IMG/VR virus record: IMGVR_UViG_2531839665_000024
From: a virus
Lineage: Duplodnaviria > Heunggongvirae > Uroviricota > Caudoviricetes
Strand: one strand, 5' to 3'
Length of the DNA stretch: 48,253 nucleotides
The position numbers and the translations under genes are program-made. The notes below the pieces were generated by a model. That model did not search any database, was not told the origin of the DNA, and was given only the letters and a program-made list of their open reading frames with translations. Shown piece by piece: positions 15,809 through 19,334 of this stretch. Each line of letters starts with the position of its first letter. Position 1 is the first letter of the stretch.

Positions 15809-15951
15809 TGTTTGAGTTTTATATGGCAGAACTTCTTCGCCACCGCTGGGGGCATCTGCGCTTATATCGTTTCCCCGGTTCTGTTTTGACCGATTACCGA
15901 ATACTGAAGAATTACGCCAAAACCCTGACAGGAGGTAAGCGTACAGCCTGA
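15805..15951 (+). CDS. ylcG: YlcG-like small protein with C-terminus altered by the IS insertion
   Basis: [46 protein letters not shown] then runs into the IS left end (GKRTA stop); the uninterrupted sequence reconstructed from the target duplication would read ...KTLTGAGV. Confidence 0.55.
15927..15934. repeat. Left copy of 8-bp target site duplication GACAGGAG
   Basis: Identical octamer occurs at 19327-19334 immediately outside the opposite IS end. Confidence 0.8.
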
Positions 15952-16005
15952 ACCGTCTGGTCAGAATCTGACGAATTAGACAAAGTGGTGTCCACCAAAT
16001 AAGTA

Positions 16006-16407
16006 GTGGGAACCAAAGTGTCAGATATGCAGAAAAATGTGACTCCCGGCAGGCGAAAAGGCTGCCCTAATTATCCTCCCGAATTTAAACAGCAGCTCGT
16101 TGCTGCCTCCTGTGAACCCGGGATATCCATCTCAAAACTTGCTCTTGAAAATGGCATTAACGCCAATCTGTTGTTCAAATGGCGACAACAATGGCGCGAG
16201 GGAAAGCTGCTATTACCTTCTTCAGAGAGCCCCCAGCTACTTCCTGTGACTCTCGATGCAGCTGCCGAACAGCCAGAATCGCTCGCAGAGGACCCGGAAA
16301 CCCTCAGTATCAGCTGTGAGGTAACGTTCCGGCACGGGACGCTCCGCTTCAATGGCAATGTCAGCGAAAAGCTCCTGACTCTGCTGATACAGGAACTGAA
16401 GCGATGA
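16006..16407 (+). CDS. tnpA: IS66-family accessory protein TnpA (orf1)
   Basis: 133-aa ORF, first gene of IS66-type operon; start codon uncertain (GTG or downstream ATG). Confidence 0.75.
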   Translation: MGTKVSDMQKNVTPGRRKGCPNYPPEFKQQLVAASCEPGISISKLALENGINANLLFKWRQQWREGKLLLPSSESPQLLPVTLDAAAEQPESLAEDPETLSISCEVTFRHGTLRFNGNVSEKLLTLLIQELKR

Positions 16408-16751
16408 TCCCGTTACCTTCCGGGACCAAAATTTGGCTGGTTGCCGGTATCACCGATATGAGAAATGGCTTCAACGGCCTGGCTGCGAAAGTACAGACGG
16501 CGCTGAAAGACGATCCCATGTCCGGCCATGTTTTCATTTTCCGGGGCCGCAGCGGCAGTCAGGTTAAACTGCTGTGGTCCACCGGTGACGGGCTGTGCCT
16601 CCTGACCAAACGGCTGGAGCGTGGGCGCTTCGCCTGGCCGTCAGCCCGTGATGGCAAAGTGTTCCTTACGCAGGCGCAGCTGGCGATGCTGCTGGAAGGT
16701 ATCGACTGGCGACAGCCTAAGCGGCTGCTGACCTCCCTGACCATGCTGTAA
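16404..16751 (+). CDS. tnpB: IS66-family TnpB (orf2)
   Basis: 115-aa ORF with ATGA overlap to tnpA; conserved IS66 Orf2-like sequence ([22 protein letters not shown]...). Confidence 0.8.
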
Positions 16752-16800
16752 ATCTCTTTATCCTGGTTGTCACAGAATAAGCCCGGTAAAATACGGGCTT

Positions 16801-18339
16801 ATGAACGACATCTCTTCTGACGACATCTTCCTGCTGAAACAGCGCCTGGCCGAACAGGAAGCGCTGATCCACGCCCTGCAGGAAAAGCTGAGCAACCGGG
16901 AGCGCGAAATAGACCATCTGCAGGCGCAGCTGGATAAACTCCGCCGGATGAACTTCGGCAGTCGTTCCGAAAAAGTCTCCCGCCGTATCGCACAAATGGA
17001 AGCCGATCTGAACCGGCTTCAGAAAGAGAGCGATACGCTGACTGGTAGGGTGTATGACCCGGCAGTACAGCGTCCGTTGCGTCAGACCCGCACCCGTAAG
17101 CCGTTCCCTGAATCACTACCCCGTGACGAAAAGCGACTGTTGCCTGCGGCGCCGTGCTGCCCGAACTGCGGCGGTTCACTGAGCTATCTGGGCGAGGATA
17201 CCGCCGAACAGCTGGAGTTGATGCGTAGCGCCTTCCGGGTTATCCGGACGGTACGGGAAAAACATGCCTGTACTCAGTGCGATGCCATCGTGCAGGCACC
17301 TGCACCTTCGCGGCCCATCGAGCGGGGTATCGCCGGACCGGGGCTGCTGGCCCGCGTGCTGACCTCGAAGTATGCAGAGCACACCCCGCTGTATCGCCAG
17401 TCAGAAATATACGGCCGGCAAGGTGTGGAGCTGAGGCGTTCACTGCTGTCGGGCTGGGTGGATGCATGCTGCCGGCTGCTGTCTCCGCTGGAAGAGGCGC
17501 TTCATGGCTATGTCATGACTGACGGCAAACTCCATGCCGATGATACCCCGGTCCAGGTACTGCTGCCGGGTAATAAGAAGACGAAGACCGGGCGGTTGTG
17601 GGCGTATGTTCGTGATGACCGCAATGCAGGGTCAGCGTTGGCACCTGCAGTGTGGTTCGCTTACAGCCCGGACAGAAAAGGCATCCATCCGCAGACTCAT
17701 CTTGCCTGCTTCAGCGGTGTGCTGCAAGCGGATGCGTACGCCGGGTTCAACGAGCTGTATCGCAATGGTGGGATAACGGAAGCTGCCTGCTGGGCTCATG
17801 CCCGCCGAAAGATCCACGATGTGCACGTCCGCATCCCGTCAGCACTGACGGAAGAAGCCCTGGAGCAGATCGGTCAGTTGTACGCCATAGAGGCGGATAT
17901 AAGGGGAATGCCGGCAGAGCAGCGGCTTGCTGAACGTCAGCGAAAAACGAAACCGTTGTTGAAATCCCTGGAAAGCTGGTTGCGTGAAAAGATGAAGACC
18001 CTGTCGCGACACTCAGAGTTGGCGAAGGCGTTCGCGTACGCACTTAACCAGTGGCCGGCACTGACGTACTATGCGAACGATGGCTGGGTGGAAATCGACA
18101 ACAACATCGCTGAAAATGCCCTGCGGGCGGTCAGTCTGGGTCGTAAAAACTTCCTGTTCTTCGGCTCTGATCATGGTGGTGAGCGGGGAGCGCTACTGTA
18201 CAGCCTGATCGGGACGTGCAAACTGAATGACGTGGATCCAGAAAGCTACCTTCGCCATGTGCTTGGCGTCATAGCAGACTGGCCGGTCAACCGGGTCAGC
18301 GAACTGCTTCCGTGGCGCATAGCACTGCCAGCTGAATAA
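16801..18339 (+). CDS. tnpC: IS66-family transposase TnpC (DDE)
   Basis: 512-aa ORF with N-terminal leucine-zipper-like region, CxxC...CxxC zinc motif and DDE-type core, typical IS66 transposase. Confidence 0.85.
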
Positions 18340-18422
18340 CACATCCCCGTCAATACGGCCCTCGCTGTACGCTTACGGTATTTCTGACTCATGGCCGTTT
18401 TTATAATGCGGCCAGGTGTTTT

Positions 18423-18773
18423 TTACAACATTGTCAGGGCGTTAAGGCGGGATGTTTTTGGCTGACGCCAGTCCAGCTTATCGAGGAGCATTGCCAGTTG
18501 CGAGCGGGTAATGGATACCTTACCGTCACGCACCGCAGGCCAGATAAACTGGCCTTCCTCCAGGCGTTTGGTGAACAGGCACAGACCATCAGCATCAGCC
18601 CAAAGAATTTTAACGGTGTCCCCCCGTCGGCCACGGAAGATAAACAGGTGACCGGAGAAGGGATTATCATTCAGCACATGTTGTACCTGTTCTCCCAGTC
18701 CGTTGAAGGATTTACACATATCGGTAACGCCGGCAACGAGCCAGATACGGGTACCTGATGGGAGTGAAATCAT
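18423..18773 (-). CDS. tnpB: IS66-family TnpB homologue (second, diverged copy)
   Basis: 116-aa ORF similar but not identical to 16404-16751 product. Confidence 0.75.
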   Translation of the reverse strand: MISLPSGTRIWLVAGVTDMCKSFNGLGEQVQHVLNDNPFSGHLFIFRGRRGDTVKILWADADGLCLFTKRLEEGQFIWPAVRDGKVSITRSQLAMLLDKLDWRQPKTSRLNALTML

Positions 18774-19195
18774 CTTCCCCTCCCGCTCAGTTCGCGGATT
18801 AACATCGTGAGCAGCTCTGGCGATGGATTTTCCAGCGTCATGTTACCGTGACGGAATTCCACCTTGCAGGAACTGGCACTGACTCTGGTCTGAGTGGAAG
18901 TGGATAAAGACGGCGCAATGGCCGCCACAGGTTCTTTCTGCTCATCCGGCGTTATTTCTACAGGTAATAATTCAACGCCAGTGTCAGAAGAGGTTGTTAC
19001 CGGAAGACGCCGCGAAACATGCCCTTCGTTCTGCCAGAGCCTGAGCCATTTGAAAATAACATTATCATTGACGCCATTTTCTCGTGCAATCTGTGTAACA
19101 CAAGCTCCAGGTTGTGATGCCAGTTCAACCATACGAAGTTTGAATTCATTCGAATACTTTTTACGAGGTTCTTTTCGCCAGTCCTGTAATTCCAT
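18770..19195 (-). CDS. tnpA: IS66-family TnpA homologue (second, diverged copy)
   Basis: 141-aa ORF with ATG start; overlaps downstream tnpB by 4 nt. Confidence 0.7.
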   Translation of the reverse strand: MELQDWRKEPRKKYSNEFKLRMVELASQPGACVTQIARENGVNDNVIFKWLRLWQNEGHVSRRLPVTTSSDTGVELLPVEITPDEQKEPVAAIAPSLSTSTQTRVSASSCKVEFRHGNMTLENPSPELLTMLIRELSGRGR

Positions 19196-19326
19196 ACTTA
19201 GATGTCCGTCTGTGTCAGATGGGCGTCTAAGTTACCAATTCTTGTCTAATGGCTACATACGGCGGTCGGTTTACGCTTACTCTAATTCGTCAGATTCTGA
19301 CCAGACGGTTCAGGCTGTACGCTTAC

Positions 19327-19334
19327 GACAGGAG
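19327..19334. repeat. Right copy of 8-bp target site duplication GACAGGAG
   Basis: Direct repeat of 15927-15934 flanking the composite IS. Confidence 0.8.

Follow-up and report, generated by a model that had tools for sequence, protein, structure and literature searches.

Among the insertion sequences (ISs) of the IS66 family, IS66 and IS679 are the characterised members (Machida 1984; Han et al. 2001, as cited in PMC6778807). They combine a three-gene layout with terminal inverted repeats and an 8-bp target duplication. In the composite transposons Tn5, Tn10 and Tn9, inverted IS-derived termini bracket other DNA, and the whole moves as one. In ISEcp1 with alternative right ends, and in inside-out or same-end transposition of IS10 and IS50, one functional IS gives the transposase and one end, a separate end-like sequence sets the other boundary, neighbouring DNA travels with the unit, and the whole becomes flanked by a normal target duplication. 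Published work on IS66 and IS679 has dealt with canonical elements having a left and a right end, and to our knowledge it has not addressed whether two left ends suffice. The present study concerns a 3392-bp insert at positions 15935-19326 of the 48,253-nucleotide virus record IMGVR_UViG_2531839665_000024 (Caudoviricetes; the whole stretch is hereafter called the window), where it lies between ylcG and quuD inside a lambda-like prophage. Our analysis indicates that this insert is very probably an ISEc8-driven transposition unit, and neither a canonical IS nor a classical two-IS composite transposon.

The insert consists of a complete ISEc8, a fragment of a probable ISEc23 and a 46-bp relic of an ISEc8 left end, the names ISEc8 and ISEc23 resting on NCBI PGAP annotation. 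The complete ISEc8 (2442 bp, 15935-18376, + strand), with its left inverted repeat starting at 15935 and its right one ending at 18376, is identical at 2442/2442 bp to two copies in Escherichia coli strain JB2, whose transposase is annotated as 'IS66-like element ISEc8 family transposase' (WP_000998048.1). Its three genes lie on the same strand. These are tnpA (16027-16407, with an alternative GTG start at 16006; Pfam HTH_Tnp_1, and NCBIfam IS66 TnpA NF047595 at 97.7 bits); tnpB for the IS66-type accessory protein (16404-16751; PF05717, 131 bits; NF033819, 120 bits), whose start overlaps the tnpA stop codon; and an intact tnpC for a DDE transposase of 512 amino acids (aa) (16801-18339). TnpC scores 355.9 bits with PF03050 (cut-off 23.1 bits) and 459.2 bits with NF033517 (cut-off 180 bits), and also contains LZ, zinc-finger and C-terminal IS66 domains. 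A preliminary description of the window, made from its letters alone, had placed the insert in the IS66 family; this holds, as TnpA, TnpB and TnpC are all far above the Pfam and NCBIfam cut-offs and the identical transposase is named ISEc8 by PGAP.

Next to ISEc8 lie what are probably the first 904 bp of ISEc23 (18377-19280, - strand), with the left inverted repeat at their right-hand side and the tip of the element at 19280. This fragment holds tnpA (19195-18770) and tnpB (18773-18423), whereas tnpC is cut off after 16 nt and the right end is missing. It is 100% identical to the copies found beside efa1/lifA in JB2 and in the enteropathogenic E. coli (EPEC) strain E2348/69, the latter copy having a frameshifted tnpC and the PGAP name 'IS66 family' only. 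Its identity to the first 904 bp of copies whose tnpC is annotated as 'ISEc23 family' (loci L003 and L008) is 96.8%. The 46-bp relic (19281-19326, - strand) forms the right terminus of the unit and is a perfect, inverted match to ISEc8 positions 1-46.

Terminal repeats starting with 5'-GTAAGCG are typical of the IS66 family. Four termini of this type (GTAAGCGTA) are present in the insert, at 15935 (+), 18376 (-), 19280 (-) and 19326 (-), so that the earlier suggestion of IS66-type inverted ends is supported; the ISEc23 right end at the JB2 efa1 locus likewise begins with GTAAGCG. The left and right inverted repeats of ISEc8 have the terminal 13 nt in common and are alike at 18 of 22 positions. 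The outermost sequences of the insert, inverted GTAAGCGTACAGC... ends, form a perfect 46-nt inverted repeat (15935-15980 versus 19281-19326).

Comparison with the known systems defines what is unusual here. The unit resembles plain ISEc8 in having the full 2442-bp copy, intact tnpA, tnpB and tnpC and GTAAGCG ends, with identical JB2 copies that show 8-bp duplications. It differs in being 950 bp longer, in having a second left end in place of its own right end, and in carrying ISEc23 tnpA and tnpB as passengers. The right-hand target duplication adjoins this second left end and the true right end of ISEc8 (18376) is internal, which is not the layout of a canonical IS. Unlike Tn5, Tn10 and Tn9, the unit contains one complete IS only, the other arm being the 46-bp relic with no genes, and it does not qualify as a classical composite transposon either. 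The preliminary description had proposed a composite element with an 8-bp duplication. Both parts stand, with the refinement that the element is not two ISs around a cargo and that its termini are two left ends. In contrast to the ISEcp1, IS10 and IS50 cases, the surrogate end is not a degenerate look-alike but a genuine, perfectly conserved left-end relic of the same IS; furthermore, the IS family is a different one, and the cargo is only a fragment of another IS.

The octamer GACAGGAG, which is single in the empty sites, occurs on the left at 15927-15934 and on the right at 19327-19334, where it abuts the last base of the insert. A third copy exists at 23024-23031 (- strand), against a chance expectation of 0.88 per window; therefore, the octamer count on its own is not significant and has little meaning. 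Both flanking copies lie directly against the end bases of the insert, for which the chance at a fixed position is about 4^-8 = 1.5e-5. Deleting 15935-19334 in silico joins ...AAAACCCTGACAGGAGCAGGAGTATGA / ...CCCTGACAGGAGCAGGAGTATGA, which translates to a YlcG ending in KTLTGAGV-stop, and the same sequence is found at three uninterrupted sites. The insertion point is three codons ahead of the ylcG stop. The altered open reading frame (ORF) (15805-15951, + strand; NCBIfam YlcG NF033498, 73.9 bits) encodes 48 aa instead of the 46 aa of the intact gene, GKRTA replacing the C-terminal AGV. Thus, the target site is as it had been described at the outset, in the flush octamers, in the ylcG end that excision restores and in the changed last codons.

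The alignment with an uninterrupted ylcG-quuD junction, which had been proposed as a check, agrees with this. Strain CFIAFB20190167 (locus L002), strain JB2 (L004) and phage PhiR68_2 (L006) all have the uninterrupted site with one octamer. The JB2 prophage occupies the same argU site, is 99.97-100% identical over all comparable sequence, and is 100% identical to window positions 14681-19878 after removal of the insert. In PhiR68_2, the two BLAST alignment blocks overlap by exactly the 8-bp octamer.

These junctions also bear on whether the insert could be an assembly artefact, in which a plain ISEc8 at ylcG was led along a wrong path through the repeat graph and so acquired sequence of the efa1 locus (the ISEc23 fragment and the relic). 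ISEc8 is multicopy, the insert query (which includes ISEc23 sequence) matches 12-13 places in JB2, IS repeats are a classic source of misjoins, and the window's genome is missing from the complete RefSeq genomes, none of whose records covers at least 80% of 15400-19900. However, a plain insertion would have one left-end and one right-end junction, whereas this insert meets unique prophage DNA with a left end on either side. Since the two end types diverge after 13 nt, a plain insertion could not produce this right junction from reads or k-mers above about 21 nt, and the 8-bp duplication is exact. We therefore consider an artefact very unlikely.

The source of the transposed DNA is indicated by JB2, a strain from a rabbit farm in Sichuan. 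Among 5,426 complete E. coli genomes, JB2 is the sole record with the 3392 bp as a single collinear match, at 100% identity. There the unit sits beside efa1/lifA, within a larger IS cluster and with no direct repeats. On its left is the remainder of ISEc23, ending in ...GAGGTATTTC, of which the terminal octamer is GGTATTTC; on its right is an IS256 fragment, followed by efa1/lifA. The octamer GGTATTTC is present on both sides of ISEc8 in the JB2 ISEc23 and is single in E2348/69. Therefore, ISEc8 at that place has simply inserted into ISEc23 and has made an 8-bp duplication of its own, one copy of which is found in the window at 18377-18384. The preliminary description had stated that the same sequence without flanking direct repeats in related genomes would speak against an insertion. 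Taken literally, JB2 has such a sequence, but it does not refute the insertion, since that copy is the donor context inside ISEc23. The efa1-adjacent arrangement in JB2 is, as judged from this collinear match, the donor arrangement.

The E2348/69 locus, in the order IS3 fragment, uninterrupted ISEc23 with one GGTATTTC, 46-bp relic, IS256 fragment and efa1, shows the older state that preceded the entry of ISEc8 into ISEc23. The junction between the ISEc23 tip and the relic was found in 65 complete genomes of several pathotypes, including EPEC E2348/69 and strains of O55:H7, O103:H2, O121, O145:H28 and O111:H2, and the relic is therefore old. Adjacency of the junction to efa1/lifA was checked at two loci, those of E2348/69 and JB2.

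A further reading, that nesting of ISEc8 in ISEc23 is widespread (77 records with at least 80% insert coverage), was rejected because the multi-piece matches are non-collinear. In those matches, ISEc23 meets ISEc8 head to head, the point of contact being ISEc8 position 16 or ISEc23 position 20. The two elements often adjoin within each other's first 15-85 bp (ISEc8 positions 16, 46 and 85; ISEc23 position 20), as at 3904/3905 in locus L007, 3885 in L008, 8223-8307 in L003 and 5050/5051 in L005. Such abutments make multi-piece BLAST 'places' misleading. They also suggest that IS66-family elements tend to enter the left-end regions of their relatives.

We propose the following course of events. 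An old ISEc8 beside efa1/lifA would have been interrupted by, or rearranged against, ISEc23 at position 46, which would have left the relic abutting the left tip of ISEc23. The junction itself is directly visible in the genomes, and its mode of origin is what we infer. In the JB2 lineage, an intact ISEc8 then entered the start of ISEc23 tnpC, duplicating GGTATTTC, with its left end facing away from the relic. The outcome, as shown in JB2, is two outward-facing ISEc8 left ends 3392 bp apart. In the strain of the window, TnpA, TnpB and TnpC of the intact ISEc8 would have taken the intact and the relic left ends as termini, and everything between them would have been inserted at GACAGGAG, with repair of an 8-bp staggered target cut giving the duplication. 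Given how the unit is built, the donor copy in JB2 and the site that is empty in relatives, it is highly likely that transposition took place through two ISEc8 left ends.

A rival to this course is stepwise assembly in place. A plain ISEc8 would first have landed at ylcG and made the GACAGGAG duplication, and the remainder would have been added later by further insertion of ISEc23 and ISEc8, by deletion, or by gene conversion with the efa1 locus as donor. ISEc8 is active in the lineage and is found at other places of the nin region, in ybcN of JB2 and in ybcO of L002, and IS66-family elements are often found inside each other's left ends. On the other hand, such assembly must recreate, base for base, two junctions of the efa1 locus (ISEc23 tip with ISEc8 position 46, and ISEc8 at GGTATTTC), must reach a 100% match to that locus over 3392 bp, and calls for a deletion that stops precisely at the duplication. 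For gene conversion, the homology on one side would be limited to 13 bp, the terminal stretch shared by the left and right ends, and the ylcG site of the sister strain is simply empty. This origin is hardly credible.

Several points weigh against transposition through two left ends. The comparison covers end products, namely the donor-like copy, the empty site and the filled site. The donor locus of the window's own genome lies outside the window, and the donor is deduced from the sister strain JB2. A second transposed copy with another duplication was not found among complete E. coli genomes, plasmids, species-representative genomes and metagenome contigs; exact-junction scans of the species-representative genomes and metagenome contigs gave no match, and PLSDB plasmids held no collinear copy of the unit. 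Besides, we know of no experimental test of two-left-end use by an IS66-family transposase. Continued or repeated mobility of the unit is only a possibility, though its three genes and both ends are intact.

ISEc8 itself has left traces at other sites. The JB2 prophage has its own ISEc8 in ybcN (L004 23688-26129) with the duplication GAATGCAC, and CFIAFB20190167 has one in ybcO (L002 3005-5446) with the duplication GGCTGGAT. All ISEc8 end pairs examined show an 8-bp duplication (GAATGCAC in JB2 ybcN, GGTATTTC in the JB2 ISEc23 and GGCTGGAT in L002), the length reported for IS66 in PMC6778807. Since identical copies occupy different sites (ylcG in the window and ybcN in JB2) in otherwise identical prophages, these genome comparisons show ISEc8 to be currently active in this lineage. 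Three independent ISEc8 insertions, in ybcN, ybcO and ylcG, lie within about 1.3 kb of the nin region in different strains. Either a preferred target or selection favouring insertions ahead of Q could account for this cluster.

Apart from the insert, the window closely resembles a phage that can still be grown. The window without the insert is 99.9% identical to PhiR68_2 over 1-15934 and 99.1% identical over 19327-41902, and the backbones are collinear save for tail-fibre variation. PhiR68_2 has been used in plaquing assays (bioRxiv 10.1101/2025.11.03.685801). As far as this alignment tells, the rest of the prophage has the full-length backbone of a viable phage. The prophage may be compared with DLP12 of K-12, in which rusA is preceded by the rus-1/rus-2 insertions of IS2 and IS10 (Mahdi et al. 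1996, cited in PMC12844172). The two share the prophage family, the argU site and the nin/Q neighbourhood, and the IS lesions of DLP12 (IS5 in nmpC; IS2 and IS10 at rusA) alter downstream expression and accompany prophage decay. They differ in that DLP12 carries single canonical ISs in an already truncated prophage, whereas here the backbone is full-length and about 99-99.9% identical to a plaque-forming phage over most of its length.

Two further differences between the prophages concern single genes. An intact 360-aa porin gene (nmpC/ompD-like; 20003-21085, - strand) lies between quuD and the lysis genes of the window. In JB2, ISKpn26 stands in place of the porin gene, and in K-12 the DLP12 porin copy is disrupted by IS5. 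For ybcK, a serine-recombinase gene, the window has an intact ORF of 508 aa (10977-12503), and the annotation of the near-identical JB2 prophage gives it as frameshifted, the two prophages differing by one gap over window positions 1-14688.

The insert may affect the prophage through its length. Lambda heads accept about 78-105% of 48.5 kb. The major capsid protein of the prophage is identical over about its full length to solved 341-aa entries such as 7vi9 (E = 1.9e-224), which we take to be phage lambda gpE. The PhiR68_2 record is 49.7 kb long and the equivalent span with the insert is about 53.3 kb, or 110% of lambda, the prophage being about 3.4-3.65 kb longer than PhiR68_2. If the PhiR68_2 record represents the packaged genome, the insert alone may prevent stable packaging. 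As a point against this, no repeat of the argU 3' end that would mark the attachment site (att) was found in the PhiR68_2 record, so that the size argument is conditional.

The insert may also act through transcription of quuD (19431-19814, + strand), which encodes an intact Q-type late antiterminator (PF06530, 179 bits, residues 1-118 of the 118-position model) and is annotated by PGAP in L002 and L004. The gene keeps its start codon (19431) and its upstream 96 bp, the insertion lying 96 bp ahead of that codon. As was noted in the preliminary description, the insert parts quuD from upstream early-right transcription by 3.4 kb; it also cuts quuD off from rusA-ylcG. Upstream of quuD there are now ISEc8, transcribed towards quuD, then a hairpin, and then about 1.1 kb antisense to ISEc23 tnpB and tnpA. 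The hairpin (18392-18424, + strand) is predicted to be terminator-like and lies just beyond the right end of ISEc8, with a 7-bp G+C-rich stem (18392-18398/18408-18414), a U6 run (18419-18424) and a folding energy of -15.4 kcal/mol for 18378-18432 (z = -3.1). A simple terminator scan missed it because its loop is 9 nt long. Scanned for sigma-70 and terminator consensus matches, 15400-20000 had no more of them than shuffled sequences did and gave nothing useful near quuD; no convincing promoter match was found in 19335-19430, nor any good outward or local sigma-70 match.

Rightward transcripts would cross ISEc8, the terminator-like hairpin and about 1.1 kb of untranslated antisense DNA, and would also meet any leftward transcription of ISEc23 tnpA, the start codon of which lies 85 nt inside the ISEc23 tip. 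Because of these obstacles and the opposing transcription, it is plausible that the supply of Q after induction would be reduced. The polar effect and the cryptic state of the prophage, which the preliminary description had offered as a possibility, are reasonable suggestions in this light. Either reduced Q or excess length would tend to lock the prophage in the chromosome.

Other observations speak against an effect on Q. Antiterminated lambdoid early transcription reads through polar IS insertions, as is established from the classical lambda N work. The K-12 literature leaves quuD outside the rusA-ylcG operon (PMC12844172), so that quuD may have a promoter of its own. The insert could then be near-neutral, with quuD still adequately expressed through antiterminated read-through, read-out from ISEc8 or its own promoter in the 96 bp, and with an inducible prophage. 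Such an outcome would fit the untouched quuD with its upstream 96 bp, the orientation of ISEc8 tnpABC towards quuD and the simple scan, which gave no + strand terminator in the insert. It would also fit K-12 DLP12, which is without the early region and yet has QuuD-dependent control of the lysis cassette reported, as cited in PMC7918800. However, the predicted + strand hairpin with its U-run stands past the right end of ISEc8, the roughly 1.1 kb of untranslated antisense RNA ahead of quuD would be a typical Rho substrate, and 19335-19430 holds no promoter-like match. Moreover, an N homologue and boxA were not found in the regions searched (given below), and the extra length may exceed the head capacity whatever the transcription. 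A near-neutral insert is possible, though somewhat less likely than not.

As to the route by which transcription passes the 5-kb emrE-ybcK-ybcL-ybcM block to reach Q, none of three features looked for was seen. An N-like arginine-rich ORF was not found between gam and the repressor (the 4690-5160 region of the window), the boxA consensus was not found in 1-16000, and the pL leader of about 170 nt folds no better than shuffled sequences (z = -0.27). An antitermination RNA like HK022 put is not supported by this z value.

Some features elsewhere in the window deserve mention. Two genes at 5160-6615 (- strand), between the cI-like repressor and the pL operator region, occupy the position of lambda rexA/rexB. 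Their products are a 341-aa protein and a 149-aa protein that by eye is strongly hydrophobic and multi-pass. Neither gene has a Pfam or PADLOC match, both are conserved in PhiR68_2, and they may together form an uncharacterised pair for exclusion or defence. Inside the O-like replication gene, at 8747-8860, 19-bp palindromic repeats (TTTACCYGAATCAGGTAAA) form a cluster that presumably represents origin iterons. The sole Rfam match in the window at the gathering threshold is a full-length IS009 (RF02111; 47333-47531, + strand, 220.9 bits), in or beside the tail-fibre assembly gene and just upstream of a pin-like recombinase gene.

An IS in a prophage is routine, and the insertion described here is of an ordinary type that adds no new class of system, although the unit with two left ends is mildly novel. 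What is new is the exact composition of that unit with two left ends, one of them a 46-bp relic, together with the presence of both donor and empty site in one sister strain and the backbone of a viable phage. The locus is thus a natural experiment on the end requirements of the IS66 family, whose mechanism is poorly characterised. Donor, empty site and filled site, all at 100% identity, indicate that two left ends, one of just 46 bp, can delimit what moves; therefore, old IS relics in pathogenicity islands would be latent transposon ends. Since the backbone is that of a full-length DLP12 relative at argU, about 99-99.9% identical to a plaque-forming phage over most of its length, the insert just upstream of the late-gene activator is a candidate for the first immobilising lesion of a prophage. 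Taking these strands together, ISEc8, and by extension IS66-family transposition, may need no right end. The efa1/lifA relic, present in at least 65 genomes, may become a working terminus once an intact ISEc8 lands nearby and so give rise to a new autonomous 3.4-kb unit. The first recorded jump of that unit, by cutting Q off from early transcription and making the genome over-long, may have founded a DLP12-type resident prophage from a viable lambda-like phage. We hold this wider scenario tentatively, as plausible yet somewhat short of probable.

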